A stretch of 64,000 nucleotides of DNA from contig NC_086097.1 in NCBI RefSeq assembly GCF_963921235.1, positions 41,728,001 to 41,792,000 on the forward strand, in the 5' to 3' direction. The position numbers and the translations under genes were made by a program. The notes under the pieces were generated by a model, which was not told where the DNA came from, searched no databases, and saw nothing but the letters and a program-made list of their open reading frames with translations. This stretch comes from Mobula hypostoma (Eukaryota). Positions 16,166-61,980 of the stretch are shown piece after piece (position 1 is the stretch's first letter; each line of letters starts with the position of its first letter).

Positions 16166-16315
16166 GAGGGAATCCTATCTTATTCACTCAGAGGGTGGTG
16201 TAGTGTGGAATGAGGGAATCCTATCTATTCACTCAGAGGGTGGTGTAGTGTGGAACGAGGGAATCCTATCTTATTCACTCAGAGGGTGGTGTAGTGTGGA
16301 ATGAGGGAATCTTAT
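16131..16315 (+). repeat. 46-bp minisatellite, 4 copies
   Basis: Unit TCTTATTCACTCAGAGGGTGGTGTAGTGTGGAAYGAGGGAATCCTA repeated in tandem. Confidence 0.95.
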
Positions 16316-22000: not shown

Positions 22001-23960
22001 TGGAATCCAACACCAACCTGATTTTCCCAATTGACCTGCATATTGAAGGCCCCTGTGACTATTGTAACATTGCCCTTTTGGCATGGATTTTCTACCTCCC
22101 GTTGGAACTTGTAGACCACAACCTTACTACTGTTTGGGGATCTATATGCACCTCGCTTCAGGGTCTTTTTACCCTTGTAAGTCCTTAGCTCTGTCCACAA
22201 TGATTCAACACCTTGCGACCCTATGTCAACTCTTTCTAATGATTTGATCTCAATTTTACCAACAGAGCAACCCCATCCCCTCTACCTTCCTGCCTGACCT
22301 TTCAATACAATGTGTACCCTTGGATATTGAGCTCCCAGCTCTTTCAGCCATGATTCAGTGATATCTGCAACTTCATACCTGTCAATCTGCAGCTGTGCTA
22401 CAAGTTCATCTACCTTATTCTGTAGAGGACCATTCACACTTTACACCTTTTTATGTTGCAACTTGTCCTGTTGTCTCTCCTCACTACACATTGCATTCGT
22501 TTGTAAACCAGCTACCTCATCATCAGCACTATTATCTGCCTTTCTTACAATACTTCTTGCATTGAAATATAGGCAGCTCAGGACACTAGTCACACCATGC
22601 TCAACCTTTTGATTCCTAACTTGTCTGAGCTCTTACCAACATCTGCCTCTACAACCTCTCCACTAACTGTTCGGGCACTCTGGTTCCCATCACCCTGCAA
22701 CTCTAGTTTAAACCCCACCATGCAGCATTAACAAACCTTCCTGCTAGGATATTAGTCCCCTCCAGATCAGGTGCAAATCATCCCTTCTGTACAGGTCCCA
22801 CCTTCCCTGGAAGAGAGCCCAATGATCCAAAAATCTTATGCCTTCCCTCCTACACCAACTCCTTAACCATGCATTAAACTGTATAATCTTCCTAGCTCCG
22901 GCCCCACTAGTATGTGGCACGAGTAGCAATCGTGAGATCACAACCCTAGAGGTCCTGCCCTTTAACTTAGCACCTAACTCTCTGAACTCCTTATGCAGAG
23001 ACTCGTCACTCATCCTACTCTTGTTATCAGTACCTACATGGATCATGACTTCTGGCTGTTCACCCTCCCAGTTATGAATGCTAAGGACTCATCCGAGATA
23101 TCCTGGACCCTGGCACCCGGGAAATAACTTATCATTCAAGAAACACGTTCTCCATCACAGAACCTCCTGTCCGTTCCCCTCCTAATGAATCCCCTATCTC
23201 AACAACATTCCTGTTCTCCCCTGCTTCTCTTTTGAGTCACAGAGGCAGACTCAGTGCCAGAGACCTGACCACTGTGACTTTCCTCTATTAGGTCATCCCC
23301 CATGACAGTATCCAAAATAATATACATGTTATTCAGGGGGATGGCACAGGGGTACTCTGCATTGGCTCCTTAACCCCTTACCCCTTCCTGACTGCCACCC
23401 AGTCTCCTGTGTCCTGCACCTTGGGTGTAACTACCTCTCTATATGTCATATCTATCACCCCCTCAACCTCCCGCTCCAACTCCTTAACGTGGATTGTTAG
23501 AAGTTGCAGCTGGATGCACCTCATAGTTGTAGTTGTCCGAGACACTGGAGGTCTCCCTGCCTTCCCACATCCCGCAAGAGGAGCATTCCACTATCCTGCC
23601 TGGCATCTCTACTGTCCTGGCTGAGCAGATATAAAGAAGGAAAGAAAAAGAAACTTCACCTTGAGCTTTTCTTTTTCTTTCCTTTTCTTTCTCTGGCTGA
23701 ATCCTCTCTTCATTGGCCTCGAAGCGCTAAAGCCTCAAGATCTCCATTCTGAATCTGTCCACTCAGATGACAGCCACTGTGACTATTGCCCATGTGCTTG
23801 CCCCTGCCTTCTTTTAATTTGCTCTTGCTAATTGGTTGCTGGTTGCCGGTCAAAGCTCCTATTCACTGCTGCTACCTTCTGCTGCCTTTTCTACTGGGGT
23901 AGTGGACTAAATTGAAGTCCCCTCCTCTCAAAACTTCCAATGTCCAGATTGGCCATTGGG
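19014..23960 (-). mobile_element. Decayed near full-length CR1 nested in another CR1
   Basis: ORF1 esterase (HVGTDN..RFLDHW..DDLHL, 22744-23046), APE (YRSPNS, 21895-22200), RT (SGVPQGSVFG..KFADD, 19805-19993), C-terminus (19081-19377). Confidence 0.88.
20606..21275 (+). mobile_element. Non-autonomous retroposon (~670 bp) inserted in CR1
   Basis: GC-rich start with AAGATGGCGGC; AATAAA, stem-loop GAGGAC-TGCGT-GTCCTC and (AATCT)3 tail; flanks rejoin into continuous CR1 (TTCCACCATACT/GTTAGTCTCTTCCACAGTGAAG). Confidence 0.75.
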
Positions 23961-25377: not shown

Positions 25378-25494
25378 ATAAAAAGAGAAAATCTGCAGCA
25401 ACAGACGCAAAATGCTGGAGGAACTCAGCAGACCAGGCAGCATCTATGGAAAAAAGTAAACAGTCGATGTTTTGGGCCAAGACCCTTCATCAGG
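25378..25494 (-). repeat. Solo Penelope-like terminal repeat with decayed hammerhead motif
   Basis: Minus strand reads CCTGATGAAGGGTCTTGGCCCAAAACATCGACTG. Confidence 0.8.
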
Positions 25495-25649
25495 TTTGGT
25501 AGTGACCATAGCTATCCTGAAAGTTAAGAGTTGCAATCACTGTTCCCTAACTGCTCACCCACGTAAACATCAGTCACATGGTCAGGCTCATTATTCTTTG
25601 AAATCGTTTCTGAATCTTTTGAATTCACTTCAGAAGGCTGATGGCACAT

Positions 25650-28865: not shown

Positions 28866-31404
28866 TTGATCTACCTAAATGCACTCAACACAGATAAAGG
28901 CAATGAAAGCAAGCGGAAGATATCTATAAAAAGCACTACAAATCTATTAGAAATTTTATGAATTCAACAACTGGAAAATGATGCAAATGCAACTGCCTGT
29001 CTGAATCATTTCAGCTGACATACCAACATCACCAGTGTTTAGTCAAATAACAGACTAGTTCATCCTACTGACTCGGCTTAGCACACGCTCAGTTAATCTC
29101 AGATAACTGTCCAAATGTGCCTTTACCCCAAATGATAGAGATTATTGTCTCAGCAAATTCCATATTCTTAAGCGTACCAGAGCCATTCGTCACAAAGAAC
29201 AACATTTGTTATGGCAAGAAAGCTACACTTAAAGAATAAATGTCATTTTGGACAAAAATGATGCATCAGTACTTGAAAGAAGAACATACATAACTGTAAC
29301 CTTTAGCAGTTTCAGCAATATTGTTCAAATTAATGGAATTCTTCTGGGTTTTGATTATTAAAAGAAGCATAACATTATTGAAGTAAAAAAAAGAGGTCAT
29401 TCAGCCTATTCATTTTATGCCAACCCCTGATAAAATATCACCTCAATCCACACCCTCATTCCTTCTCTGAAAACTACTCTCCATCCGAGGACAGTCCTTT
29501 GATTAATTCTAATTCTGTTTCCACCAACCCTATCTGGAGGGAGTTCTAGTTCATAAGAAATCTGTATGAAAATATGTTTATCTTCACATTGTGTCTTTGG
29601 AACAACTAGTTTTGAAACATTTACTACTAAAAATATTTTCCCTCCATTTATGTTATCTAGACCAGTTATGATTTTCTATTAAACATCCTTTCAACTTCCT
29701 TTATTTCAAAGAGTTGTCTTTAAAAATTCACAAGAGTTAATTTATGAGATCCAAGATTACTAAAGAAGATGTTTACTAATGATTAAAAGCAAATTACAAT
29801 GACAGTGCTCAAAAGTAACTTTTTATGGGACAAGTACATATTAACACATTCCAAAATCCTAGAATGTCTCTAAGTATTTCACATGATCTGCTTTAAATTA
29901 TCTCATTGTTGTAAAACAGGGAAAATTGTACACATTTCCCACAGCAAATTCCAAAAAAGAATAATGAGATTTATAGGCAGATAATTTATTTTAGGGATAT
30001 TAGCTGAGGATTTAACATTGTCCAGGGGTTACTGGTAAGAGCCCATTTCCATATACAAGACTTAATTCTTTTTAGGCCTATTATGGAAAATTGGGTTGCC
30101 ATTTGAGAAAAGTAAGTTGGTACATAGTGGAGATTTTGTAGAATGCTGCAAGTGGGCACAAATGGAAAGTACTTGAATATATCCCCTGAGTTTGGGCACA
30201 CACAGTGCACAATCAATCTACTTGTCAATGCTGCCTGACTTGCCAAGTTTCTCCAGCATTATGTATGTGTCACTCAAGGTTTCTAGCATCCGTAGAACTC
30301 TTGTGCTTACTACTACTTGCCACCACTGCCCACCATCTCCACTCTACACTTCTGGTGGCAACTGGACCCACATCCCCTCAGGACTTTGAATGGGTGGAGT
30401 CTGGATCCATGTTGGGTATGGATCCTCTCCAGCTGTAACCCCTCTTGAGGGGCTTCTCCACAGTAAATAGTAATAGACTCATGCCTACCTATGCCAATCC
30501 CATGTTCCTGCATTGATTCTTTCTCCCTCTATGTCTCTCTCATTCAAGTACCTTATCTTGATGCTTCTTAAATGTTGAATGCGCACCTCAGAACAGAACA
30601 GAGAAATCAAGTCCTTGATAAAGTTTATACTACTTGATGTTTTAGGAAATTACGGAGCATTTTGGCAATTTAATGCACTTTGCCATCTAAACTGAACTTG
30701 GCAATAATATTATTATGTATTTTTCAAAGTCACACTCGCAGTAAAACTTACCAAGTAACTGCCATTATGCAATTACCCATGCATCAGACTAACATCTAGG
30801 TTCAGTGATTTGTCTGCATATTTTGAAAGTAGCATGTTTAATTTAAGTAAAAATGAATATGTAAATTTCTCATTGTTGACCTTTATTATTGAATGTTATT
30901 GGTGAAAAAAATAGATTTTTATGGATTAGGTCTTCTAAGTTGTTTCTTTTCCAGTTAAAACCTGAATAGTCAAGCACAAAATATAATGTATCAAAGTTCT
31001 CACATAAGATCAAGAAATAAATGTCAGTTCAATAATGGATGGAGCAAAGATTACATGAGAAGGCTTGAGTTCACCTAACTCATGATACCTAAGTCCAGAC
31101 ACAAAATTCACTCAATTTCCAATTCCTCTTTATCTTGCAATACTGATTTTATCCATCTACTGCTCTCTGTTCTATAAAGAATCAATCTATTTCTATTCAT
31201 AAATGCTTTTCCCAGATTCTGCAGTTGCCAAATGTTAAAGAAGTGTATTGATGTCAATAAATCTAGGTTTGAAGACAGTTTTTCAGCTATTTTTGGTTGT
31301 GGTTGTAACACTGCTCATGCCTCAGACTTCCCGAGATCAATGCATATACAATTTGATGGACCAAAACTTATTGTTTAACCTCAATATTCTCCGTGAGAAA
31401 ATTC

Positions 31405-31830
31405 ACAAGCTGCTACACACATAAAATGCTGCAGGACCTCAGCAGGAATAGCAGCATTATGGAGGGAAAGGACGAGACCCTTCATCAGAACTGGACAGAA
31501 AGGGGGCAGAAACCAGAACAAAAAGTTTGGGGGAGGGGAAGAGCACAAGGTGGATCGAAGAATGAATGGAAAGTAGATAGGTAGGGGAGGAACTAATGTG
31601 AGAAGAGTGAATGGGATAGTAGATAGGTAGGGGAGGAAATAATAGTATGGAAGGGAATGATGTGAGAAGCTAGGAGCTGAAGGGTGGAAGAGACAAAGGG
31701 GCTGATAGTAAGGTCCAAAACGTAGACCGTTCATTTCCCTCCATAGATGCCGCCTGATCTGCTGAATTCCTCCAGGACTTTATGCATGTTGCTCAAGATT
31801 TCACTCATCTGCACCATCTCTTGTGCCTCT
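31405..31830. repeat. Inverted pair of Penelope-like terminal repeats with purine-rich spacer
   Basis: Left ACACACATAAAATGCTGCAGGACCTCAGCAGG..GAGACCCTTCATCAG; right CCATAGATGCCGCCTGATCTGCTGAATTCCTCCAG. Confidence 0.75.
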
Positions 31831-32009
31831 GTTTTGCAAGCTGTTACACTGGATTGAATGATAAAACTATAATGCATACTTCTGATATTACATTTATAAC
31901 TTCGCTCTGACTTAAACTCTCTTTTCCGACACTTGTATCCTCCTGCACCTTATATCTCATTCACCTGTCAACTGTAAATGTTTTTTTATTTACAAAACTC
32001 AGATGGTAA

Positions 32010-33048: not shown

Positions 33049-33457
33049 AAAAACTGCTTACAATACGCCAAATGTGTTCTGATCAATGCCTTATAAAGCT
33101 CACAAACAAGAGAAAATCTGCAGATCCTGGAAATCCAAGGAACCCAAACAAAATTCGGAGAAGGAAGTATGAGAATTGGAGCGGAAGTGCGGCAGAAGCC
33201 ATTTTGAATTTTTCGTTTTTTCATTGGAGTTAAAAGAGGCGGGACTGCGCAGGCATGTGACGTTGGGCAGTGAAGCACGGAAGATTTAAAAGGAACACAG
33301 CCTTATACAGCGGGCAGCGTTGTTTGAGGGCTGTGGAGTGAGCTGGGAGCAGAGTGAAGGCCTAAGGGCTTTGGCTCAACGGGCTTAGGTGGAAACGGGT
33401 GAGGTGAAGAAGGTTTGGTTTTCAATTTTCCCTGTTATTTGAGGAAAAGGGTGAAGT

Positions 33458-34386
33458 ATGAGTGTGAGGGCAGCTTGTTGTTCTCAGTGTCGGATGTGGG
33501 AGGTCCTGGAGTCTCCCAGCCTCCCGGACGTCCACATCTGCGCCAGGTGTGCAAAGCTGCAGCTCCTAAAGGATCGCGTTAGGGAACTGGAGCTGCAGCT
33601 TGATGACTTTCGTCTGGTCAGGGAGAGTGAGGAGTTGATAGAGAGGAGTTACAGGCGGGTGGTCACACCAGGGCCATCGGAGGCAGACAAGTGGGTCACG
33701 GTTAGGAGGGGGAAGGGGAAGAGTCAGGTAATAGAGAGTACGCCAGTGGCTGTGCCCCTTGACAATACGTACTCCTGTTTGAGTACCGTTGGGAGGGACA
33801 GCATACCTGCAGGAAGCAACAATAGCCGTGCCTCCAGCACAGTCCTGTAGCTCAGAAGGGTAGGGAAAGTAAGAGGAGGGCAGTAGTAATAGGGGAACCT
33901 ATAGTTAGGGGGTCAGATAGGCGATTCTGTGGATGCAGTCAGGAGACCCGGATGGTAGTTTGCCTCCATGGTGCCAGGGTCCGGGATGTTTCTGAACGCG
34001 TCCAAGATATTCTGAAGTGGGAGGGTGAGGAACCAGAGGTCGTAGTACATATAGGTACCAATGACATAGGTAGGAAAAGGGAAGGGGTCCTGAAAGGAGA
34101 ATATAGGGAGTTAGGAAGGGAGTTAAGAAGAAGGACCGCAAAGGTGGTAATCTTGGGATTACTGCCTGCGCCATGTGACAGTGAGTATAGGAATAGAGTG
34201 AGGTGGAGGATAAATGCGTGGCCGAGGGATTGGAGCGGGGGGCAGGGATTCAAGTTTTTGGATCATTGGGACCTCTTTTGGTGCAGGTGTGACCTGTACA
34301 AAAAGGACATGTTGCACTTGAATCCTAGGGGGACCAATATCCTGGCAGGGAGATTTGTGAAGGCTACTGAGGTGACTTTAAAGTAG
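33458..34386 (+). pseudogene. CR1 ORF1: zinc-finger/leucine-zipper plus SGNH esterase-like domain (frameshifted)
   Basis: CSQCRMW..CARCAKL..LKDRVRELELQL, then GARV..HIGTND..DMLHLN..G; frame break near 33845. Confidence 0.88.
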
Positions 34387-34387
34387 A

Positions 34388-37300
34388 ATGGTTGGGGGGG
34401 GGGGTGGGAATCAAATTGAAGAGTCTAGTAGAGAGAAGGTTAGTTCACAAATAGAGGAAGCTAGTAGACAGTGTGTGAGGGAGGATAGGCAGGGGACAGA
34501 AAATGGGAGCACACAGACCAAAGACGTATGGGAGAAGGAAGAAAAAGATAACAAACTTGTTTGCTCCATGAGGAATAAACAGAGAGTAAGAAGTGGAGAG
34601 TTTCTTAAATGCATCTATTTTAATGCTAAGAGCATTGTAAGAAAGGTGGATGAGCTTAGAGCATGGATTGATACCTGGAAATATGATGTTGTAGCTATTA
34701 GTGAAACATGGTTGCAGGAGGGGTGTGATTGGCAACTAAATATTCCTGGATTTCATTGCTTCAGGTGTGTTAGAATCAGAGGGACAAGAGGGGGAGGTGT
34801 TGCATTGCTTGTCAGAGATTATATAACAGCGGTGCTTTGGCAAGATAGATTAGAGGACTCGTCTAGGAAGGCTATTTGGGTGGAATTGAGGAATAGGAAA
34901 GGTGTAGTGATGCTTATAGGGGTGTATTATAGACCACCTAATGGGGAGCAAGAATTGGAGGAGCAAATTTGTAAGGAGATAGCAGATATTTGTAGTAAGC
35001 ACAAGGTTGTGATTGTAGGAGATTTTAATTTTCCACACATTGACTGGGAAGCCCATTCTGTAAAAGGGCTGGATGGTCAGGAGTTTGTAAAATGTGTGCA
35101 AGGTAGTTTTCTGCAGCAATACATAGAGGTACCAACTAGAGAAGGGGCAGTGTTGGATCTCCTGTTAGGGAATGAGATAGGTCAGGTGACGGAGGTTTGT
35201 GTTGGGGAGCACTTCAGGTCCAATAACCACAATACCATTAGTTTCAATATAATTATAGATAAGGATAGGACTAGACCAAGGGTTGAGATTTTTGATTGGA
35301 GAAAGGCTAACTTTGAGGAGATGTGAAAGGATTTAGAAGGCATGGATTGAGACAATTTGTTTTATGGGAAGGATGTAATAGAGAAATGGAGATCATTTAA
35401 AGGTGAAATTTTGAGGGTACAGGATCTTTATGTCCCTGTTAGGTTGAAAGGAAAGGTTAAAAGTTTGAGAGAGCCATGGATTTCAAGGGATATTGGAAAA
35501 TTGGTTCGGAAAAAGAGAGGGATCTACAATAAATACAGACAGCTTGGAGTAAATGAGGTGCTCGAGGAATATAAAGAATGTAAAAGGAATCTTAAGAAGG
35601 AAATTAGAAAAGCTAAAAGAAGATATGAGGCTGCTTTGGCAAGTAAGATGAAAATAAATCCAAAAGGTTTCTACAGTTATATTAATAGCAGAAGGATAGT
35701 GAGGGATAAAATTGGTCCCTTAGAGAATCAGAGTGGATGGCTATGTGCAGAGCCAAGAGAGATGGGGGAGATTTTGAACAATTTCTTTTCTTCGGTATTC
35801 ACTAAGGAGAAGGATATTGAATTGTGTAAGGTAAGGGAAACAAGAAGGGTAGTTATGGAAAGTACGATGATTAAAGAAGAGGAAGTACTGGGGCTTTTCA
35901 GGAATATAAAAGTGGATAAGTCTCCGGGTCCTGACAGTATATTCACTTGGACCTTGAGGGAAGTTAGTGTGGAAATAGCAGGAGCTCTGACAGAAATATT
36001 TCAAATGTCATTAGAAACGGGAATGGTGCTGGAAGAGCGGCATATTGCTCATGTTGTTCCATTGTTTACAAAGGGTTCTAAGAGTAAACCTAGCAATTAT
36101 CAGCCTGTGAGTTTGACGTCAGTGGTGGGTAAATTGATAGAAAGTATTCTTAGAGATGGCATATATAATTATCTGGATAGACAGGGTCTAATTAGGAACA
36201 GTCAACATGGATTTGTGCGTGGAAGGTCATGTTTGACAAATCTTATTGAATTTTTTGATGAGGTTACTAGGAAAGTTGACGAGGATAAAGCAGTGGATGT
36301 TGTCTATATGGACTTCAGTAAGGCCTTTGACAAGGTTCCACATGGAAGTTTAGTTAGGAAGGTTCAATTGTTAGGTGTTAATATCGAAGTAGTGAAATGG
36401 ATTCAGCAGTGGCTGGATGGGAGACGCCAGAGAGTAGTGGTGGATAACTGTGTGTCAGATTGGAGGCCAGCGACTAGTGGTATGCCTCAGGGATCTGTAC
36501 TGTGTTCAATGTTGTTTGTCATATACATTAATGATCTGGATGATGGGGTGGTAAATTGGATTAGTAAGTATGCAGATGAGAATAAAATAGGTGGAGTTGT
36601 GGATGATGAAGTAGGTTTTCAAAACTTGCAGAGAGATTTAGGCCAGTTAGAAGTGTGGGCTGAAAGATGGCAGATGGAGTTTAATGCTGATAAATGTGAG
36701 GTGCTACATTTTGGTAGGAATAATCAAAATAGGACATACATGGTAAATGGTAAGGCATTGAAGAATGCAGTAGAACAGAGGGATCTAGGAGTAATGGTGC
36801 ATAGTTCCCTGAAAGTGGAATCTCATGTGGATAGGGTGGTGAAGAAAGCTTTTGGTATGCTGGCCTTTATTAATCAGAGCATTGAGTATAGGAGTTGGGA
36901 TGTAATGTTGAAATTGTATAGGGCATTGGTAAGGCCAAATTTGGAGTATTGTGTACAGTTCTGGTCACCGAATTATAGGAAAGATGTCAATAAAATTGAG
37001 AGAGTACAGAGGAGATTTAGTAGAATGTTGCCCGAGTTTCATCTCGTAAGTTATAGAGAAAGGTTGAACAAGTTGGGTCTTTATTCTTTGGAGCGTAGAA
37101 GGATGAGGGGGTGTCTTGATAGAGGTATTTAAAATTATGAAGGGAATAGATAGAGTTGACGTGGATAGGCTTTTTCCATTGAGAGTGGGAGAGATTCAAA
37201 CAAGAGGACATGAGTTGAGAGTTAAAGGTTTAGGGGTAACATGAGGGGGAAACTTCTTGACTCAGAGAGTGGTAGCTGTGTGGAACGAGCTTCCAGCAGA

Positions 37301-37400
37301 AGTGGTTGAGGCAGGTTTGATGTTGTCATTTAAAGTTAAATTAGATAGATATATGGACAGGAAAGGAATGGAGGGTTATGGGCTGAGTGCAGGTTGGTGG
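34388..37400 (+). pseudogene. CR1 ORF2: APE endonuclease plus reverse transcriptase (one in-frame stop, 3' frameshifts)
   Basis: YFNAKSI..ISETW..YRPP..GDFNFP..NNHN (34388-35326); in-frame TGA; KSPGPD..DFSKAFDKVPH..PQGSVL..YADE (35357-37132). Confidence 0.93.
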
Positions 37401-37537
37401 GACCAGGTGAGGGTAAGAGTTTGCCACGGACTAGAAGGGCCGAGATGGCCTGTTTCCGTGCTGTAATTGTTATATGGTTATATGGTTAAAATGCTGGAGG
37501 AACTCAGCAGGCCAGGTAGGATCTATGGAAAGGAGTA

Positions 37538-37575
37538 CAGTCAATGTTTCAGGCCAAAACCCTTCAGCAGGACTG
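37538..37575 (-). ncRNA. Minimal type I hammerhead-like motif with variant core
   Basis: CAGUC-CUGCUGA-AGGGUUUUGGCCU-GAAACAUU-GACUG; perfect 5-bp helix I. Confidence 0.55.
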
Positions 37576-37676
37576 GAGAGAAAATGATAAGGAGTAGAGT
37601 TAATACTTGGGGACAGCAACACACATAAAAATTGCTGGTGAGCACAGCAGGCCAGGCAGCATCTATAGGAAGAGTT

Positions 37677-37716
37677 GTAGTCGACATTTCGGGCTGAGAC
37701 CCTTCGTCAGGACGAA
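37677..37716 (-). ncRNA. Minimal type I hammerhead ribozyme motif (best-preserved copy)
   Basis: GUC-CUGACGA-AGGGUCUCAGCCC-GAAAUGUC-GAC: canonical CUGANGA and GAAA boxes, GGG/CCC helix II, GUC cleavage triplet, short helix I. Confidence 0.7.
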
Positions 37717-38229
37717 CTGAAAGAAGAGATAGTAAGAGATTTGAAAGTGGGAGGGGGAGGGGAGATCGGAAATGATAGGAGAAGACAGGAGGGGGGAGGG
37801 GGGAGGAAGAGAGAAACACAAGGTGATGGGTAAAACCAGGAAGGGGAGGGGTGAAGTAAAGAACTAGGAAGTTGATCGGTGAAAGAGATGTAGGTCTGGA
37901 CAAGGGGGAATCTAATAGGAGAGGACAGAAAGCCAAAAATGTTGCCTAGCCTGCTGAGTTCCTCCAGCAGTTTGTGTGTGTTGCCTTATAAAGCTACAGC
38001 ATTACATTTTTTTTATCTTCTTATCCACTTGAAACGAATGCTAGCAATACATTTCCCTCCTTTACTACTGATGCAGCATGCAGCTGAACCTTTAGGAAAT
38101 CCTGCACCGGGTCTCCCAAGACCTCTTGAACCTCTGTTTTCTGCATTTAAATTAGAATGTTTGTTGAGAGGTGTTACAACATTAACTTCACAGCCATCTT
38201 CAGCATGGCTAAAGAGGTTGTACAGGAAT

Positions 38230-41448: not shown

Positions 41449-41877
41449 TCAGTCTCTCTCAGGCAGATAAACCAAGTATTGACTGTACATTTTCTGCACG
41501 ACCACAAATGAAAGCGTGTGCATACTATTTTTGTGTGATACTTTCACCACACATGTTCCTTTAACTGGAATGTCTGCACCTGAATACCCAGTCACTTTTA
41601 TATTTGTCTGATGTAACTTTGGCCTAGGCTTTAATGCATTAAAGTCAGATTCTGCAAGAACATTTACTTGTGCTCCAGTATCCAGTTTAAACAGAATAAC
41701 ATTTTGGTTCACTTGCAATGGCATAGTCCAGTCATTCTTACTTTGTTTGTTTTCACAAAGCACATCTATATAAAGCTCTTCGCGTTTATTTTCAAGCACT
41801 GCATTTATGTGTTTTATTTCCTTTCTACTTCTGCAACAGTGTGAAAAGTGATTACTCTGACCACAGTTGTTACACAT
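41449..41877 (-). pseudogene. Gag zinc knuckle plus aspartic protease (disrupted)
   Basis: CNNCGQSNHFSHCC (Cx2Cx4Hx4C) and FKLDTGAQVN; ILGLSACERL follows after a frameshift. Confidence 0.88.
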
Positions 41878-42007
41878 TTTACGATATGCTGGACATTTTT
41901 TAGGTCGGTGCTCCCACCCAGAGCGATCACAAAGTTTTTTTCCTTTCAGGTGACGTCTTACTCACTGTCGGTTTCGTTGCCACTTCATTATTTTTTCTAA
42001 CATGTTC

Positions 42008-42646
42008 TCAGTTATTCACAGCGTGTATGTTGCAGCTCTCAATAAAAAGCTCTTTTGCCTGTGACATCACAGTTTCCGAAGCTTTGCACAGCCTCAAAGC
42101 TTTTTCCAAGTCGATGTCTTGTTCTCTTAACAGTCTTTCTCTCAGACCATTATCCAAAATGCCACAAACAATTCTGTCTTTAATGAGAGAGTCTGTGAGG
42201 TCTGTAAACTCGCAAGTTTTACTGTGGTGTCTCAATTCCATAACAAATTGATCAATCGTTTGACCAGCTTTCTGCTTGCATGTAAAGAATTTGTACCGTT
42301 CATACGTCACATTGCGCTTCGGTATACAAAATGCTTCAAACTTGTCAATTATCGATTTTAGATTCAAATTATCTCCATTTTCAAAACTAAAATGGTTATA
42401 TACCTCAATTGCTTCATCCCCTATTACGTGGAGTAGGATCGCTACTTTCGTTTTTTCCATTTTATTTTCTGCTCCAATTGCCGATAAATAAATTTTAAAA
42501 TGCTGTTTAAATCTTTTCCAGTTTTCAGCTATGTTTCCACTCACCTGAAGCATTGATGAGAGTTGCAAAACTTCCATTTTTAAAGCTATTAGCAAACAAT
42601 GAAAAAGTTTGCACTCTTTTTTTTCGATTATCTTCGCATCTCCCAT
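42008..42646 (-). CDS. Gypsy-type Gag (capsid region)
   Basis: GNIAENWKRFKQHF..AILLHVIG..NVTYERYKF..QKAGQTIDQF..LIKDRIVCG; true start probably MEVLQL. Confidence 0.85.
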   Translation of the reverse strand: MGDAKIIEKKECKLFHCLLIALKMEVLQLSSMLQVSGNIAENWKRFKQHFKIYLSAIGAENKMEKTKVAILLHVIGDEAIEVYNHFSFENGDNLNLKSIIDKFEAFCIPKRNVTYERYKFFTCKQKAGQTIDQFVMELRHHSKTCEFTDLTDSLIKDRIVCGILDNGLRERLLREQDIDLEKALRLCKASETVMSQAKELFIESCNIHAVNN

Positions 42647-43873
42647 GTTAGCGAAACGAATTATTCTTCCAGACTGACTTCTGACACCATGTTATGTTCT
42701 TTATACGTACCGTGAGTATTTAATAAGAACAAACCATATTCTGGAAGAATTAAAACTAGAACTTCTATTTACAAACAGCAACCACGTTTTCACCATACAG
42801 TTTCTAGATCATTCTGTCATTTCTGCGCATGCTCTGAACTCTGTCCAATCACGTTCTTACACGTGACACATGATATCACCACAGCAGTGACTGAAAAAGG
42901 CAACATCCATCACCAAAGACCCACACCAGTCGTGACTTGTCCTCTTCCCATTATTGCCATCAGGAAGGAGGTACAGGAGCCAGATTCCGAAACAGTTTCT
43001 TCCACTCCACGATCATATTTCTGACTGGTCCATGAAAACTATCTCATTATTCCTTTTTTGCTGTATTACTTACTTTTGTAATTTCGGGTAATTGTACGTC
43101 TCTGCATTTGTACTGCTGCCACTAAACAGCAAATTTCACACCTTTTAAGCCAGTGATAATAAATCTGCTTCAGATTCAGATTAACGCATATAAACAAGAT
43201 GCTTGCATGGTAGGATTGCCAAGCCACAAATTAATTTTTCAGTTAATTTTTCCTCCACCAAATTCGATGTCTACATTAAGCACACTGTTGATTTTAATTT
43301 CAATTTCTTGTTGCTTTGCATTAATTTTTGCAGATATACTAAATAAACAAATCACTTCAAAAACTACCCATTCAAAGCGAGCAGTGGACAATGGTCCTTG
43401 AAAAGGGAAAAAACACTCAGAAGAATACCACACAGTTCCAATTCAGAAAAATAGATTATTTATCTTTTCTTTTACTAAGCAAAATGCACTATTAAAGTTA
43501 TTGTTCTTTCTATATTTTGGTTATGTAAATCTGATCAAATTTATGACCTGTTGTCAGCGCTCTGTACATTTTCCCTGCCTTTAAAGAGAAAGCATTGAAT
43601 TTTGGTGATAAGAAATGCAATGTGAAGTAATTGTCAAGATTGGCTTCATCTTCCTCTGGTGTTACACACAGAGAATGCTGGAGGAACTCAGCAAGTTAGG
43701 CATCATCTATGGAGGGGAATAAACAGTTGGTGATTTGGGCTGAGACACTTCATCAGGTACCCATAGCTTATTCTGTTCCATAGCCACTGCCCAACTAGTT
43801 GAGTTCCTAAGCAACACACACAAAATGCTGGCGAAACGCAACAGGTCAGGCAGCATCTATGGAAATAAATAAA

Positions 43874-43910
43874 CAGTCACTGTTTTGGCCTAGACCCTTC
43901 TTCAGGACTG
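43874..43910 (-). ncRNA. Decayed hammerhead motif
   Basis: CAGUC-CUGAAGA-AGGGUCUAGGCC-AAAACAGU-GACUG; helix I intact, GAAA box and cleavage site mutated. Confidence 0.5.
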
Positions 43911-44251
43911 GAAAGGAATGGGGAAGATGCCAGAATAAGAAGATAGTGGTAGAGGAAGGAGGCTAGCTAGAAGGTGAGAGGTGTAGCCAGGTGGGTAGAA
44001 AAGATACAGGGCTGGAAAGGGAGGAGGAGGAGATAGGCAGGTGAAAAGAGATATTAGGCCAGAGTGGGGAATAGAAAGGAGGGGAAGGGAATTTTTTTTT
44101 TACCGGAAGGAGAAATCGATATTCATGCCATCAGGTTGGAGGTTACCCAGATGGAACATAAGGTGTTGCTTCTCTACTCTGAGGGTGGCCTCTTTTGGCA
44201 CAAGAGGAGGCCATGGAGCAACGTGTCTGAAAAGGAATGGGAATGGGAATT

Positions 44252-46246
44252 CCCACCTGCTTCGATGACGTCGACTGAAATGTCTTCCATGATGAGGATA
44301 TCTCCAAGTTCACAGATGGAGTCACATGCTTCATCCAGAAGTGCATCGACAATGTTGTCTCCCAGAAGTCGGTCAGGGTCTTCACGATTCAGAAACGCTG
44401 GATCAATAGTTCCGTGCCAGCAGCAGTTACTGCGCGACATAGAGCTTACATTGCCTGCCGTCAGCTAGAGCTCAAGAAAAGCAGCTATGATCTGCGCAAA
44501 GCTTTCAAGGCTGTGAAACAACAATACAGGGACAAGATTCACAATGAATAGCACACGTGGCTTGTGGCGAGGGCTGCATACCGTCGCAGACTTCAAAGCC
44601 AAACGTTGTGGTGCTGCCAACATCACGGCCTCTCTTCCAGATGAGCTCAATTGTTTTTACGCTCAGTTCGATGTTGCTAACTCTGAGCCTCTATGGAAAG
44701 CCACTGCTACAACCTGCAACCTGGTCATCTCTGAGGCTGAGGTACGCAGATGTTTCCAATGAGTGGACAGTCGCAAGGCTGCAGGACCAGACTGCATCCC
44801 AGGGCGAGTACTCAGGATGTGCACAGCACAACTGGCAGGTGTGTTTACTGACATTTTTAATCTCTCCGTCTCCCAGTGTAGAGTGCCTTCCTGCTTCAAA
44901 TTATCCACCATTGTCCCTGTACCAAAAAAGACCAAGGTAACATGCCTGAACGACTGGTGTCCCGTCGCACTCACCTCAATAATAAGCAAATGCTTTGAGA
45001 GGCTGGTCAACGATTACATCTGCAGCTTGCTACCACCCAAAATGGACCCCCTACAATTCGCCTACCAATACAACCGATTGACAGAAGATGCAATAGCCAC
45101 TGCTCTACATAACGTCCTTACACACTTGGAGACAAAGGATTCTTATGTGAGAATGCTGTTCTTGGACTACAGTTCAGCATTCAACACCTAATTCCATCCA
45201 GGCTCGACCAGAAGCTCAGAAACCTCGGCCTTGACCCTGCCTTGTGCAGCTGGATCCTGGACTTCCTGTCAGATCGCCGGCAGGTTGTAAGAGTGGGCTC
45301 CCTCTCCTCCAACCCTCTGACTCTCAATACAGGAGCCCCTCAGGGCTGCGTACTGAGTCCCCTCCTTTACTCTTTATGTACCCATGACTGTGTCGCCACG
45401 CACAGCTCTAATCTGTTAATTAAATTTGCTGATGACACTACATTGATTGGCCTAATCTCAAACAATAATGAGGTGGCCTACAGGGAAGAAGTCACCTCTC
45501 TGACACAGTGGTGTCAAGAAAACAACCTCTCCCTCAATGTTACAAAAACAAAGGTTGTGGACAACAGGAGGAATGGAGACAGGCTAAGCCCTATTGACAT
45601 CAATGGATCTGGGGTTGAGAGGGCAAACAGCTTTAAGTTCCTCAGCATCCACATCATCGAGGACCTCACATGGTCTGCACACACCAGCTGTGTGGTGAAA
45701 AAGGCACAACAGCGCCTCTTTCACCTCAGACAGTTGAAGAAGTTTGGTATGGGCCCAAATCCTAAGAACTTTCTATAGGGGTACAATTGAGAGCTTCCTG
45801 ACTGGCTGCAGCACTGCCTGGTATGGGAACTGTAGCTCCCTTAATTTCAGGACTCTGCAGAGAGTGGTGCGGACAGCCGAGCGCATCTGTAGTTGCGTAC
45901 TTCCCATGATTCAGGGCATTTACAAAGACAGGTGTGTCAAAAGGGCCCATAGGATCATTGAAAACCCAAGTCACCCCAACCACAATCTATTCCAGATTCC
46001 AGACTTTAGGAAACGGTACCGCAGCATGAAAGCCAGGACTAATAGGCTCCAGGACAGCTTCTTCCACCAGGCCATCAAGACTGATAACTCACAGTGTATT
46101 CTATGTTCCATTAACTGTTCTATTTATTATAAATTATTACAAATTACTGTAAATTACACGTTGCACATTTAGAAGGAGATGTAACGTAAAGATTTTTACT
46201 CCTCATGTATGTGAAGGATGTAAGAAATAAAGTCAATTCAATTCAA
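44252..46246 (+). mobile_element. Rex1/Babar LINE, 5'-truncated
   Basis: [74 protein letters not shown] tail. Confidence 0.93.
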
Positions 46247-46335
46247 AAGTTTGGCCACCGAGAGGTTCCGCTTTTGGTGGATGGAGCACAGGTGCTCAAC
46301 GAAGCTCTCCCCCAATTTACCACGGGTCTCACCGA

Positions 46336-48166
46336 AAAAGATTGGTTAAGACAAATGTAGGTCCCCTACAGACAGAAACAGGTGAATTGATTATGGGGAG
46401 CAAGGACATGGCTGACCAATTGAATAATTACTTTGGTTCTGTCTTCACTAAGGAGGACATAAATAATCTTCCGGAAATAGTAGGGGACAGAGGGTCCAGT
46501 GAGATGGGGGAACTGAGTGAAATACATGTTAGTAGGGAAGTGGTGTTAGGTAAATTGAAGGGATTGAAGGCAGATAAATCCCCAGGGCCAGATGGTCTGC
46601 ATCCCAGAGTGCTTAAGGAAGTAGCCCCAGAAATAGTGGATGCATTAGTGATAATTTTTCAAAACTTGTTAGATTCTGAACTAGTTCCTGAGGATTGGAG
46701 GGTGGCTAATGTAACCCCACTTTTTAAAAAAGGAGGGAGAGAGAAACTGGGGAATTATAGACCGGTTAGCCTAACATCAGTGGTGGGGAAACTGCTGGAG
46801 TCAGTTATCAAAGATGTGATAACAGCACATTTGGAAAGCGGTGAAATCATCGGACAAAGTCAGCATGGATTTGTGAAGGGAAAATCATGTCTGACGAATC
46901 TCATAGAATTTTTTGAGGATGTAACTAGTAGAGTGGATAGGGGAGAACCAGTGGATGTGGTATATTTGGATTTTCAAAAGGCTTTTGACAAGGTCCCACA
47001 CAGGGGATTAGTGTGCAAACTTAAAGCACATGGTATTGGGGGTAAGGTATTGATGTGGATAGAGAATTGGTTGGCAGACAGGAAGCAAAGAGTGGGAATA
47101 AACGGGACCTTTTCAGAATGGCAGGCAGTGACTAGTGGGGTACCGCAAGGCTTAGTTCTGGGACCCCAGTTGTTTACAATATATATTAATGACTTGGATG
47201 AGGGAATTAAATGCAGCATCTCCAAGTTTGCGGATGACACGAAGCTGGGTGGCAGTGTTAGCTGTGAGGAGGATGCTAAGAGGATGCAGGGTGACTTGGA
47301 TAGGTTGGTTGAGTGGGCAAATTCATGGCAGATGCAATTTAATGTGGATAAATGTGAAGTTATCCACTTTGGTGGCAAAAATAGGAAAACAGATTATTAT
47401 CTGAATGGTGGCCGATTAGGAAAAGGGGAGGTGCAACGAGACCTGGGTGTCATTATACACCAGTCATTGAAAGTGGGCATGCAGGTACAGCAGGTGGTGA
47501 AAAAGGCGAATGGTATGCTGGCATTTATAGCGAGAGGATTCGAGTACAGGAGCAGGGAGGTACTACTGCAGTTGTACAAGGCCTTGGTGAGACCACACCT
47601 GGAGTATTGTGTGCAGTTTTGGTCCCCTAATCTGAGGAAAGACACCCTTGCCATAGAGGGAGTACAAAGAAGGTTCACCAGATTGATTCCTGGGATGGCA
47701 GGACTTTCATATGATGAAAGACTGGATGAACGAGGCTTATACTCATTGGAATTTAGAAGATTGAGGGGGGATCTGATTGAAACGTATAAAATCCTAAAGG
47801 GATTGGACAGGCTAGATGCAGGAAGATTGTTCCCAATGTTGGGGAAGTCCAGAACGAGGGGTCAGAGTTTGAGGATAAAGGGGAAGCCTTTTAGGACCGA
47901 GATTAGGAAAAACTTCTTCACACAGAGAGTGGTGAATCTGTGGAATTCTCTGCCACAGGAAACAGTTGAGGCCAGTTCATTGGCTATATTTAAGAGGGAG
48001 TTAGATATGGCCCTTGTGGCTAAAGGGATCAGTGGGTATGGAGGGAAGGCTGATACAGGGTTCTGAGTTGGATGATCAGCCATGATCACACTGAATGGCG
48101 GTGCGCGCTCCAAGGGCCAAATGACCTACTCCTGCACCTATTTTCTATGTTTCTATGTTTCTATGT
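46336..48166 (+). mobile_element. Young 5'-truncated CR1
   Basis: Uninterrupted RT ORF, 3' UTR and (TTTCTATG)n tail. Confidence 0.95.
46342..48066 (+). CDS. CR1 ORF2 reverse transcriptase domain and C-terminus (no endonuclease)
   Basis: 574 aa open frame: KSPGPDG, NYRPVSLTS, YLDFQKAFDKVPH, SGVPQG, KFADDTK, VRPHLEYC. Confidence 0.9.
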   Translation: MVKTNVGPLQTETGELIMGSKDMADQLNNYFGSVFTKEDINNLPEIVGDRGSSEMGELSEIHVSREVVLGKLKGLKADKSPGPDGLHPRVLKEVAPEIVDALVIIFQNLLDSELVPEDWRVANVTPLFKKGGREKLGNYRPVSLTSVVGKLLESVIKDVITAHLESGEIIGQSQHGFVKGKSCLTNLIEFFEDVTSRVDRGEPVDVVYLDFQKAFDKVPHRGLVCKLKAHGIGGKVLMWIENWLADRKQRVGINGTFSEWQAVTSGVPQGLVLGPQLFTIYINDLDEGIKCSISKFADDTKLGGSVSCEEDAKRMQGDLDRLVEWANSWQMQFNVDKCEVIHFGGKNRKTDYYLNGGRLGKGEVQRDLGVIIHQSLKVGMQVQQVVKKANGMLAFIARGFEYRSREVLLQLYKALVRPHLEYCVQFWSPNLRKDTLAIEGVQRRFTRLIPGMAGLSYDERLDERGLYSLEFRRLRGDLIETYKILKGLDRLDAGRLFPMLGKSRTRGQSLRIKGKPFRTEIRKNFFTQRVVNLWNSLPQETVEASSLAIFKRELDMALVAKGISGYGGKADTGF

Positions 48167-49339
48167 AGGGGAGGCCACATTGGGAACACCAGACACAATA
48201 GATGACCCCCAGTAAATTTGCAAGTTGAGGTTTTGCCTGACCTAGAAGGTTTGGGGGCCCTTGATTAGAGATGAGGAAGGATGTTAACGGGCAGGTGTAG
48301 TACTTTGGTCACTTGCAGAGATAAGTACCAGGAGGGAGGTTAGTGGAGAGAGGCAAATAGACATGGGAATCATGGAGATAGTGATCGCTGTGGAAAGCGG
48401 GGGCAGGGGGGCAGGAGGTAAAGATACGCTTGATGGTAGGATCCCCTTGGAGATTCTAGAAGTCACAGAGGATGATATGTTGGATGTGGAGGCTCATGGG
48501 GTAGTAGGTAAGGACAAGAGAACTCCATCGCTGTTAAGGCAGCGGGGAGATGGGGTGAACGCAGATGTCCAGGAATGGAGGTAATGCAGTAGAGGGCAGC
48601 ATCAATAGTGGAGGGAGGGAAACTCGTTCTTTGAAGACAGAGGATATCACTGATGTGCTGGAAAGGAAAACTGCATCCTGGGAACAGACTGAGAAAAGGC
48701 AATAGCATTTGAGGTATGAGGATATAGTCAAGATAAATATTGGAATCAGAAGGTTTACAAAAGATGTTAGTTGACAGTTTGTCTCCAGAAATGGAGAGAG
48801 AGAGATTGAAAAAGGAGAGGGAGGAGTCAGAAATGGACCAAGTGAAGTTGGAGGCAAAGTTGATGAAATTGACAAGCTGTGTGGGTGCATGAAGCAGCAC
48901 CAATGTTGTCACGGAGGAAAAGTTGGGGAGCATTACCAGGAAAGGTTTGGAACGTGGACTCTTCTACATAGCCAACAAAGAGTCAGGCATAGCTGGAGTC
49001 CATGCAGGTGCCCATGACAACCCTTCTAGTCTGGAGAAAGTGGGAGGAGCTGAATGAAACACTTTTGAGGGTGAGGACCAGTTCTGCCAGATTGAAAAGG
49101 GTGGTGGTGGTGGAGGGGAACTGGTTGGTTCTTTTATTGCAAAAGGAACAGAGAGCTTTAAGGCCTTCTTTACGGAGGATAAAAGTGCATAGGGACTGAA
49201 TACCATAAATTCCCCCAGCATGCTCTATGTGTTGCTCAAGATTAACCGCAGAATCACTTGTATTTACTATTCAATGGTACTGTTGATGTTTGCCACTTGT
49301 TGCTAATTTCATATTAGGAAAGAGGTCATCAGTGGATTG

Positions 49340-52300
49340 GGTGACTACAGGAAGGATTCATGCATTGAACTCCACTTCCACTTGCTGTGGAGGGCTGCGA
49401 GCAGCCGGTGTCACGCGAGAAGGAGCGTGAGCCCCTGGGTACCCAAGCAGAGAAAGTCGTTGGGAAAAATTAGAGGAGATCCAGTGAGGGAATGGCCTGA
49501 TGTTTCTGGAGGAGCAGGTTCCCAGCAATATATCAAGGAACCCCCCAAAGCTTAGTGGGGCCATACTCCAGTCTATTGCTATGGATAGAGGGTATTTATG
49601 CCAAAGCCAAACTCGACACCAGGTTGCAGGTCACATTGCTGTACCATTCGTTTTATAACCGGTATTTGACACATTTACCATTGACACCATTCGCTGCACT
49701 GGAGATCTGGGGTCTTCGTCTCAGTGCTGGTGATTATCTATATGATGGTTATTTGTCAGTGAAACTGGAGTTTCGGAGGCCGATGTGGGAGTGTCTGAGG
49801 TCCTTGAAACATGAGTGCTGGTTTGTCCGGACCCCATTGAGAAGGGCGACGTTTCAATCCTGGTGGGAACCAACACTCCTCTTGTGAGGATGCTCATGGG
49901 GGCCTACAAGGAGAAAGCTGGCGAGAGCTTTCCGGGAAAATTGTCCATCCACTCAGCGTTTCGAACTGCTTTTGAGGAAGTGCATGGCTGCATTGGGCTG
50001 GAAACTGAATTTAGACAAGGGACTGTGTGGTTCACCCAGTCAAAGCCAAAAGTGTTATGGCCTGGGGAAGTAGTGAGAGTGATGGGGCCCCCAAATTTCC
50101 CAGCATGCCAGAGGGCAAGGCCTCTTAGTGGACACTCTGGAAGACCACGAGGGGAAGTTGGGATTTCCTGCTGGGGTACTGGTGAGGCCCGAACTGCAGA
50201 AGCCCTTGGTTGTACAGGCGAGCAGGATGAATTGTCAGGAACACTAGGAAGAGGGAGGTCACCTTCAAGCGAGGAATGCCTCGGCACATCTGTTCCAGTG
50301 ACGGTAATGTCTAGTGTACCTTTGAGACAAGCCAGGGAGAAACTATTGGAAAAGGGGGGAAAGTTGACCGCTAAGTCATTCAACTTCAGGGACTCACTGG
50401 TTCCTGCGGGTTGGAAGAGGAGGCTGACAGAGAGAAGACAGCATTTATATGTCCCCAGGGATTCTCCCAGCTCGAAAGGATGCCCCAGGGCATATCGGGA
50501 GCCCCTGCAACCTTCCAGCAGGTCATGGAGAAGACAGTGGGGGATATGAACTTGCTTGATGTATTGGCGTATTTAGATGACCTCACAGTGTTTGGGTCCA
50601 CCTTGGCAGCACATGAAGTGAGGCTACTGAAGGTGCTGGGCCGCCTGAAAGCTGAAGGGTTAAAACTTTCCCTGGACAAGTGCCAGTTCTGCCAAACGTC
50701 TCTTAGCTATGTTGGGCACATAGTCTCACAGAGGGAGTAGCTACTGATCTGGATAAGATAGAGGTGGTGGCCTCCTAGCCAAGGCCCCAGACTGTGAGCG
50801 CTCTGCGCTCGTTCCTCGGGTTCTGTGGTTACTATCAGAGGCTCGTGAAGGGCTACACGAAAGTGAGTCACACGTTGAATCAATTTCGGTGTGGTTACCC
50901 TCCCTTGAGGAGGAAAGGGAGTGGGAAAAAAGAGAGGAGGGTAGAGAGTATCTTGGCCCATTGGAGCCCTTTGGACCGAGGTAGGATGCAAAATGTGAAG
51001 AGGCCTTTCAGTCGCTGAAGGAGCTGCTGACCCAGGCTTTTGCAGACCCCGGATTGTCGTATTTACTGCAAAAGGATGCCAGCTGAGAGGGTTTAAGGGG
51101 CGTCCTGTATCAGGATCGGGGCACTGGGTGGAAGCCCATTGTATTCGTCAGCCGGTGTCTGGTGCCCTCCAAGAAAATCTATTCTACACACAATTTGGAG
51201 TTTCTGGTGTTGAAATGGGCAGTGGTGGATAAGCTGAGTGACTACCTCTATCGTGCCAAGTTTGAGGTGAGGATGGACAACAATCCCCTAACTTATATCC
51301 TGACCTCGGCGAAACTGGATACCACAGACCATCAATGGTTGGTGGGATTGTCTGCCTATGATTTCAGCCTAAAGTACCGGCTGGGAAGTAGGAACATTGA
51401 TGCTGACGCTTTGTCCCAACATTTGCTTGAGGGGCTGGATAGGGACGAAGAGTGGGAGAGCGTTCCTGACCCTGGGAGTGAAAGCCATGTGCTAGTTTTC
51501 CATCACGATGAAGACAGACGGAAAGCAGGGGCTGGATCAGGCGGTAGGTAAATTGGGAGCTTCTGATGATGACATTCCACAGGTTTACTGTAACCTGACT
51601 ACTCTGAGGAGCCGAAACTGAGTTCTGGGGAAGTGGCAGATGCTCAGTGAGATAACCTGGGCATCAGTACCATTTGGTCAGTATTCGAAAAGGGGGACAT
51701 GGCTCAGGTAGAGAAGATGAAACACGCCACGGTGCCTCCATTACTGAGAGAATGGCCCAGGTTGAAGTTGCGGAACCAGATCTTATACCGGGTCACGTCA
51801 CCTCCGGACCGACCTTGGCGTTCCCAGCTGATTCTGCTGGAAAAGTATTGGAGGATTGTGTTGAAGTCACTTCGTGATGATTCTGGACATTTGGGTGTTG
51901 AAAAGACCTATGGATTGCTCAGAGACTTTTACTGGCCCTGAATGAAGCTGGAGGTCGAAGAATACTGCAAATTGTTCATTCAAAGCATACGACAGAAGGC
52001 ACTGCCTACGCGAGCAGCTCCCTTGTCCCACTTGCAGAGTACGGGGCCCCTGGACCTGGTTTGTATGGATTTCCTGTCAATAGAACCTGATGCCAGCAAC
52101 ACAGTGAATATCCTAGTCATCACGGACCACTACACCAGATATGCGTGGGCTTTCCCTACCAAGGACCAGAGGTGTCCACGGTGGCCAAGGTGTTATGGGA
52201 GAAGTATTTCATTTATTATCGCCTCCCCAGGTGGATACATAGTGATCAGGGACAGGATTTCAAGAGCAAGCTCATCCATGAGTTACTGGGCATGCTTGGA

Positions 52301-61857: not shown

Positions 61858-61980
61858 ACAAACAAGAGATAATCTGCAGATGTTGGAAATCCGAGCAGAA
61901 CACACAAAATGCTGGAGGAACTCAGCAGGCCAGGCAGCATCTAGGAAAAGAGTACAGTCGACGTTTTGGGCTGAAACCCA
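61858..61980 (-). repeat. Solo Penelope-like terminal repeat, truncated within the hammerhead
   Basis: TCTGCAGATGTTGGAAATCC..AAAATGCTGGAGGAACTCAGCAGGCCAGGCAGCATCT..CAGTCGACGTTTTGGGCTG. Confidence 0.85.

Follow-up and report, generated by a model that had tools for sequence, protein, structure and literature searches.

The 64,000-nucleotide stretch of DNA analysed here (the window) is repeat-rich, and the Pfam-matched open reading frames among the 19 scanned are pieces of reverse transcriptase (RT), APE endonuclease, esterase, protease, RNase H and integrase. Broken LTR-retroelement remnants lie at 49815-53491 (plus strand) and 41449-42691 (minus strand), with RT, RNase H and integrase pieces and with gag-like and protease pieces. 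A short tandem duplication (period about 90 bp, 99% identical) is found at 16131-16315, and a purine/pyrimidine hairpin at 23622-23703, whose weak miRNA-family matches are far below gathering scores and are probably due to chance. At 33087-37995, two copies (A and B) of the terminal repeat of a Penelope-like element (PLE) lie next to each other, and the locus is composed of the following features:

33087-33100 (no strand): left target-site duplication, 14/14 identical to 37982-37995
33101-33154 (minus): rest of copy A with about 40 bp of optional tail, on the far side of the CR1 insertion
33155-37487 (plus): CR1-type LINE inserted in copy A, not part of the PLE
37488-37600 (minus): copy A of the terminal repeat, its 3' end cut by the CR1 insertion
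37538-37575 (minus): hammerhead of copy A, with helix I 5/5, A6 to C, a G10.1-U11.1 wobble and a 15.2/16.2 mismatch
37606-37932 (minus): copy B, preceded by some 200 nt of PLE 3' UTR rich in pyrimidines
37678-37715 (minus): hammerhead of copy B, with 11/11 core bases, helix II 4/4 pairs and helix I 4/5
37933-37981 (plus): inverted scrap of the downstream half of the repeat, which closes the insertion
37982-37995 (no strand): right target-site duplication

Read on the minus strand, the order is the inverted scrap, about 200 nt of 3' UTR, copy B, copy A and a 4.3-kb LINE, after which come the rest of copy A and then the tail. The LINE is near full-length and carries a GDSL esterase ORF1, an APE endonuclease and an RT, all in broken frames; its classification as CR1 is based on this domain content. 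The piece beyond the LINE shows 46 identities in 55 columns with 61856-61910, and the 3' UTR at 37801-37882 is 84% identical to 57472-57554. The 14-bp duplication scored 14, as compared to a best score of 9 in 300 random flank pairs. Judged from this arrangement, the focal pair is one inverted and truncated insertion, bounded by the 14-bp duplication and split by the CR1 LINE. Copies A and B agree in 84 of 118 columns (about 71%, with 20 mismatches and 14 gaps) and so are not a tandem duplicate; the pair may have arisen by nested insertion or by a template switch. A candidate nested-insertion duplication around copy B (9 bp with one mismatch, 37611/37923) was rejected, since it is at chance level for the range searched. 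Copy B keeps both the CUGANGA box and the GAAA box intact (C3 at 37710), and its cleavage is predicted after 37683. Three contiguous helix I pairs lie next to its core, positions 15.2 and 16.2 form a U-G wobble, and the palindrome is reduced to AUGU.

The terminal repeat is present in at least 15 copies or scraps within the window, about one per 4 kb, according to a profile search in which nine window copies served as seeds and match by construction. Ten places had been listed in the initial annotation, and the profile matches at or beside all of them, weakly at 63410 (E 1e-5, match 63436-63523); it adds copies or scraps at 3000, 30227, 31711, 37933, 49210 and 63593 on the plus strand and at 7623 on the minus strand. 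The best match in the reversed window, used as a control, had an E of 1.8. Apart from the focal locus and the two copies linked to coding sequence, the mapped copies and scraps are:

2833-3103: head-to-head pair of 2833-2980 (minus, with tail) and 3000-3103 (plus), both with A6 to C and G12 to A
25378-25495 (minus): copy truncated at the core start, G12 to A
30227-30300 (plus): downstream half and tail, without the ribozyme, a profile match
31410-31836: head-to-head pair of 31410-31500 (minus, ribozyme half deleted) and 31711-31836 (plus, with tail)
43656-43762 (minus): decayed copy downstream of the 43804 copy, 8/11 core bases
49210-49260 (plus): weak inverted repeat scrap with tail (E 0.022), adjoining the 5' end of a long split PLE
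61858-61990 (minus): truncated copy with tail, 8/11 core bases
63436-63653: old head-to-head pair of 63436-63523 (minus) and 63593-63653 (plus)

The length of about 130-150 bp given earlier is right at its upper end, about 150 bp, when the optional tail is counted (tails at 2833, 33101, 61858, 31836 and 30300), whereas the common part measures only about 110-120 bp. The 5' ends of the copies are ragged and not fixed. Among the copies at 25391-25495, 43656-43762 and 63593-63653, two start by eye within 1-2 bases of the CUGANGA box, and the third starts some 3 nt ahead of the predicted cleavage site; three such ends are too few for calling a truncation hotspot. Clear target duplications were found at two of the eight PLE flank pairs first tested, namely 33087/37982 (14/14) and 31406/31837 (12/13, a 13-bp duplication with one mismatch around the 31410-31836 pair). 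The 2833-3103 pair has a flanking duplication at chance level only (8/10), and further flank pairs, including those of nested LINEs and other copies, gave no convincing duplications. By a rough tally, PLE fossils make up about 7% of the window (4,523 of 64,000 bases).

The high copy number proposed for the repeat was borne out by contigs from four public runs, which were compared with 57280-58330: between 150,835 and 187,312 contigs per DNA or unlabelled run fell on this 1,051-bp copy, a measure of abundance that is not itself a copy number. Likewise, most copies are without coding sequence, as coding remnants immediately precede only two of the 15 or more copies or scraps. Some contigs from three of these runs connect the downstream half of the repeat to itself at a spacing of 47-54 nt (57347-57401), which suggests short tandem forms without the ribozyme. 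DNA pattern scans for the motif returned no match in viral contigs and none in metagenome contigs.

At 57343 and 43804, remnants of GIY-YIG coding sequence precede the repeat on the sense strand, and the PLE pieces concerned are:

43804-44251 (minus): 3' piece of a long split PLE, with the endonuclease C-terminus, UTR and hammerhead
46235-46335 (minus): middle piece of the same split PLE, lying between the two inserted LINEs and carrying the part of the endonuclease that follows the YIG motif
48163-49204 (minus): 5' piece of the same split PLE, with broken RT palm and thumb, cysteine linker and GIY-YIG motif
57343-58302 (minus): 5'-truncated PLE, with the RT-EN linker, a GIY-YIG endonuclease interrupted by stops and a frameshift, 3' UTR and hammerhead

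A pyrimidine-rich 3' UTR stands between the GIY-YIG stop codon and the repeat. The repeat had been said to cap two GIY-YIG elements directly; it does follow both, but the distance from the stop to C3 is about 168 nt at 57343 and about 195 nt at 43804. In the 57343 copy, the linker and endonuclease span 58302-57608, and the hammerhead at 57408-57445 has U4 changed to A and A6 to C; in the 43804-44251 piece, G12 is changed to A and U16.1 is also changed. The 46235-46335 piece is in register with 57857-57754, and because this piece and 48163-49204 continue in register, the second GIY-YIG element is, on the evidence of the reading register, one 5'-truncated PLE running from 49204 to 43804 and split by two LINEs. 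The EN+ layout of PLEs, RT followed by GIY-YIG endonuclease, is present there in broken form. The nested LINEs occupy 44252-46234 and 46336-48162, both on the plus strand; the second, possibly young, retains an RT frame of 611 codons without a stop (46231-48066). The window contains no full-length PLE with a pseudo-LTR at either end; beside the longest copy there is only the weak inverted scrap at 49210. PLE insertions are described with inverted scraps, one-sided tails and duplications of 8-10 bp in the available portions of PMC3846280 and PMC8557442, and inverted scraps, one-sided tails and short target duplications are likewise present in the PLE insertions of the window. The coding linkage at 57343 and 43804, together with an architecture like that given in the accessible part of PMC4209133, upholds the reading of the repeat as a PLE terminal repeat with a minimal type I hammerhead.

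The read-through of 57763-58302 is 60-68% identical to eight proteins predicted for Mobula hypostoma and Hypanus sabinus, and the named protein search with the PLE read-through returned proteins of these two species only, which makes a ray the most likely host. Pfam found no family in the PLE fragments of the window or in their read-through; the best ray protein gives a GIY-YIG match of 20.9 bits, below the curated cut-off of 22.6 bits. At E 0.001, 18,649 relatives of this protein were counted among representatives. Motifs were counted in 32 fetched relatives of at least 750 aa: DKG or DKS occurs in 32/32, the C-x(2-5)-C-xx-C linker in 30/32 and the GIY-YIG pattern in 29/32, and all four of DKG, the RT aspartates, the cysteine linker and GIY-YIG are combined in 27/32. 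The cysteine linker and a CCHH endonuclease are both present in proteins P0002 and P0003, and the window PLE copy keeps C103, C111 and C141, its other cysteines being lost. According to the text available of PMC8557442, the C-x(2-5)-C-xx-C linker is characteristic of Neptune and Nematis, and the vertebrate PLE groups are Neptune and Poseidon in the accessible part of bioRxiv 10.64898/2026.07.22.740005. Hence the element would be of Neptune type, an assignment made from motifs and host group and not from a labelled tree. Two ray gene models, P0005 and P0007, named chitinase domain-containing protein 1 and mucin-2, contain PLE coding sequence, which is likely an annotation artefact. In P0163, isoform X3 of Hypanus sabinus METTL8, a stretch with 57% identity to the repeat as translated on the sense strand starts inside the ribozyme and apparently runs into the tail; it is either a predicted exonised copy or a gene-model error.

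Fifteen copies were aligned, and the 13 that reach into the ribozyme were scored for the core. The column majorities give helix I as CAGUC/GACUG, a CUGAYGA box, an extra A, helix II as GGG/CCC and ACGU-C at the cleavage triplet, with helix II of 4 bp (counting one U-G pair) closed by a tetraloop. These majorities agree with the helix I, helix II, GUC triplet and near-absent helix III with palindromic ACGU that had been proposed, and they reproduce the by-eye consensus, G12 being the exception, with A as the majority base in the window. The dinucleotide C11.1-G12 is CA in 7/10 copies, CG in 2/10 and TG in 1/10, so GAAA is not the majority form of the window and the consensus first given was a CpG back-correction. 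The CUGANGA half rests on the window alignment, with C3 in 10/11, U4 in 10/11 and G5 in 12/12 copies, G8 in 10/12 and A9 in 9/12; position 6 is A in 6/12 and C in 4/12, and U16.1 is kept in 10/12. The other half is also shown by the contig-consensus rows, made from 160 to 2,644 contigs each: among the 11 listed loose-end rows crossing the G12 site, G12 is found in seven and A in four. At 15.2-16.2 the window copies have CG in 4/10, CA in 4/10 and TG in 2/10, which is a decayed-CG pattern, and the 11 listed contig rows have, by eye, CG once and otherwise either transition product. Together, these states at G12 and 15.2-16.2 agree with the outcome predicted for an ancestral CGAAACGUC under CpG decay. 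G12 may have been lost already in some source elements, as four of the 11 listed rows carry A and G12 is in the minority in the window; a general-base role is described for G12 in the available part of PMC6155905. All 11 core bases are kept only in the copy at 37678-37715, so the description of the family as a ribozyme-bearing repeat probably holds for the ancestral element, whereas in 12 of the 13 aligned copies the core is broken or absent.

The claim that many departures from the consensus are of CpG type was confirmed by counting. With G12 and C7 set as ancestral, differences are seen in 33 of 90 CpG cells (27 being transitions), as compared to 27 of 239 non-CpG cells. At C11.1-G12 the ratio of CA to TG is 7:1, and at the other CpG sites it is 4:2, 4:2, 1:4 and 0:3. 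The non-CpG differences are distributed alike, at about 11%, over the core (9/81), helices (13/113), loops (5/45) and downstream part (50/420). Because core, stems and downstream part have diverged equally, the dispersed copies show no sign of selection on the ribozyme.

A strict descriptor, which does not backtrack and can miss motifs, found one full motif, with C3 at 37710, in the window and none in 100 shuffles. A fuller descriptor with one core change allowed gave 37710 and an unrelated match at 20467, and nothing in the reversed window. The hammerhead reading might instead be a by-eye artefact imposed on an ordinary repeat hairpin. The covariance-model check went against the initial annotation, with no hammerhead family among 10 Rfam matches up to E 10; moreover, the core boxes alone occur four times where shuffles give 4.01, and the predicted minimum fold is a plain rod. 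On the other hand, the published extras are all present, namely the extra base before helix II, G10.1-C11.1 and the palindromic 15.2-16.2, and the same motif occupies the same place with different stems in related PLEs. In 29 metagenome loci of related PLEs, found with a single protein query, a relaxed descriptor gave six motifs and none in the reversed sequence; the strict descriptor, which does not backtrack, gave none in the same loci, and neither did the window profile. Nine tblastn matches in seven of these loci covered the linker or endonuclease, and in L007 and L019 the motif lies on the sense strand at or just after the match to the endonuclease end, with different but pairing stems. 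Of two other loci inspected, L020 ends too early and L002 has no motif. With the full motif seen once in the window as against none in the shuffles, the artefact is largely refuted and very improbable.

Minimal hammerheads were noted in the PLE-bearing contigs L007:1468, L019:3571, L013 and L021. The motifs of L007 and L019 are both CCGANGA (U4 to C), and helix II of L019 is the one printed for the Neptune element of Acropora digitifera in Fig. S3 of PMC4209133, as far as that source was available. Over six window copies plus L007 and L019, 84.9% of 86 cells are paired, as compared to 13-40% when the strands are slid. There are six double-sided changes, reached by 2 of 500 shuffles, a count that is partly circular because it comes mostly from L007 and L019, which were picked for pairing. 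The consensus monomer folds (z = -2.0 against shuffles) at its predicted minimum into a rod of -14.5 kcal/mol, as compared to -10.5 for helix I and helix II alone. PLE hammerheads are reported, in the accessible parts of PMC4209133 and PMC6765202, to be inactive as monomers and to cleave weakly as dimers, and the predicted core-burying rod would be in line with both.

Minimal PLE hammerheads have been known since 2014, including those of fish Neptune elements (PMC4209133). In the available text of this paper (Cervera and De la Pena 2014), the minimal hammerheads of metazoan PLEs, including fish Xena, Poseidon and Neptune, share with the window family the type I topology, CUGANGA with one extra base, G10.1-C11.1, GAAA, a palindromic 15.2-16.2 without helix III, a U-rich 5' flank, the position in the 3' repeat and the thousands of solitary truncated copies per genome. 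The repeat motif fits the consensus of Fig. S3, and its helix II of 4 bp is at the short end of the published range. The difference lies in the host and at position 6: the accessible text of Fig. S3 and Table S1 includes no chondrichthyan, whereas the window family is from a ray, and the rows of Fig. S3 have A at position 6, where 4/12 window copies have C. The Neptune clade, as far as covered in the text available of PMC8557442, is similar in its C-terminal GIY-YIG with CCHH, in the C-x(2-5)-C-xx-C linker and in DKG (the last seen in the relatives), and also in partial tandems, inverted 5' scraps and a one-sided tail of 30-40 bp; the linker is shared by Nematis, and the window copies are all broken and 5'-truncated. 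PAc, a Poseidon element of Anolis (Frangieh et al. 2024, available part of PMC11167929), likewise has a hammerhead in the terminal repeat and an optional tail, which is explained there by two internal RT start sites. Unlike the window family, Poseidon has no cysteine linker, and the PAc ORF starts inside helix II. The PAc hammerhead is reported to cleave only with the protein of the element and to be dispensable for insertion in vitro.

The short copies could also belong to an independent non-autonomous family, either a non-LTR retrozyme or a PLE-driven SINE, which multiplies as its own ribozyme-processed and possibly circular RNA and of which the 37488-37716 pair would be a dimer. Animal non-LTR retrozymes (available part of bioRxiv 10.64898/2026.07.22.740005) are indeed PLE-derived non-coding units with type I hammerheads and include one chondrichthyan. 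The rarity of coding sequence among the copies fits this origin, as do two places in the window with two motifs 140-150 nt apart and the few public-run contigs that join the downstream half to itself at a spacing of about 50 nt. However, the retrozymes of that preprint are tandem units each with a complete motif, at least two consecutive complete units being the working definition, whereas the window units are dispersed, dissimilar and mostly broken. A complete core is found in 1/13 copies and tandem neighbours differ, the focal units being about 71% alike with one intact core only. The ragged 5' ends, the run of the focal copy into the same 3' UTR as the coding copy, and the inversions, tails and duplications of the PLE insertion type all argue against this explanation, which we regard as quite improbable. 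Of the two forms offered in the initial annotation, retrozyme-like or truncated, the first is therefore not supported, as no tandem array of like intact units was seen, and the second stands, in the form of dispersed 5'-truncated and inverted PLE insertions. That the copy at 37678-37715 has been kept intact by host use, for example in processing an overlapping transcript, is extremely improbable. It is the sole copy of 13 with 11/11 core bases, but its downstream part has diverged like the rest (0.33-0.49 from other copies), helix I is shortened, the palindrome is lost and its neighbour has A6 changed to C. One intact core in about ten copies is expected under neutral decay. The hammerhead helices have a low pairing probability in context (at most 0.23 in the natural 253-nt tandem RNA), and no host gene was recognised among the 19 open reading frames scanned.

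The change of A6 to C is common to the copies at 2864, 3000, 37477 and 57343, which represent three insertions and all have a short linker after helix I. Tentatively, and at rather less than even odds, a ray PLE subfamily with a fixed A6 to C may have kept amplifying, which would make it a natural high-copy C6 hammerhead of animals; no paper linking this variant to PLEs was found in the literature search. The same core change occurs naturally in the hammerhead of phage Bcep176 (accessible parts of PMC3088659 and PMC7151607), which has a full helix III and has been assayed, whereas here it is a possible subfamily trait of a retroelement read from sequence alone. In two other hammerheads, A6C sharply lowers the cleavage supported by Mg and spares that supported by Mn, according to the same sources. 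A broader possibility, which we consider unlikely though not negligible, is that the motif was already dead or crippled in some or most source elements and was carried as a passenger, with amplification proceeding without cleavage. It would account for the A6-to-C copies in separate insertions, given the sharp drop in Mg-supported cleavage (PMC7151607, available part), and for the excess of CA over TG at C11.1-G12, which is unlike the other CpG sites. In the anole PLE, moreover, catalytic mutants of the hammerhead had no effect on insertion in vitro and no RNA ends were seen at the hammerhead site, according to the portion available of PMC11167929. Set against this, the sharing of A6 to C has a chance of about 0.2 over all sites and its co-segregation with the linker a Fisher p of 0.18; in a tree of 11 copies, whose branching is weak, the A6-to-C label needs three changes, no fewer than shuffled labels, and G12 is the majority state in seven of the 11 listed contig-consensus rows. 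The passenger explanation is compatible with the PLE identity and differs on function only.

Taken as a whole, the observations are best explained, with a probability of roughly 0.88, by a repeat that is the 3' pseudo-LTR of an EN+ Neptune-type PLE with an ancestral minimal hammerhead, now present in neutrally decaying copies. This element would have amplified massively in the ray lineage. In its ancestral sense RNA, a minimal type I hammerhead probably lay about 170-195 nt past the GIY-YIG stop, with a 5-bp helix I, CUGANGA, an extra A, a 4-bp helix II and GAAA, and with a palindromic ACGU in place of a true helix III. A lone hammerhead would fold as an inactive rod, G5-A6-C7-G8 being predicted to pair with the 15.2-17 strand. 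By analogy with published PLEs, cleavage after GUC would require two copies to pair through the palindrome, as in a tandem transcript, and the protein of the element would probably help. The likely task of the hammerhead is trimming of the tandem precursor RNA, and it need not be essential. Reverse transcription would start just downstream of the motif, at two alternative sites that give the optional tail, and because of this start the hammerhead would be copied into every insertion. In most cases reverse transcription would abort early or fold back, leaving insertions that are short, truncated and head-to-head, have no coding sequence and are flanked by target duplications of 13-14 bp. After insertion, the copies would decay neutrally, fastest at CpG.

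This ray PLE family was not found described in the largely open-access literature searched, and our results extend the 2014 observation of PLE hammerheads to a Neptune-type family of rays. This is relevant to repeat annotation, as hammerhead scans of shark and ray genomes can be expected to return very many dead matches. The wider question is whether PLE hammerheads act in vivo. If the C6 subfamily is real, one possibility is a hammerhead crippled in Mg, whose spread would then speak, in vivo, for retrotransposition that does not depend on PLE hammerhead cleavage; the other is a C6 hammerhead adapted to a different cation or to assistance by protein. With its very high copy number and its possible core-variant subfamilies, the family may serve as a natural experiment on this question, if subfamily ages and core states are counted genome-wide.
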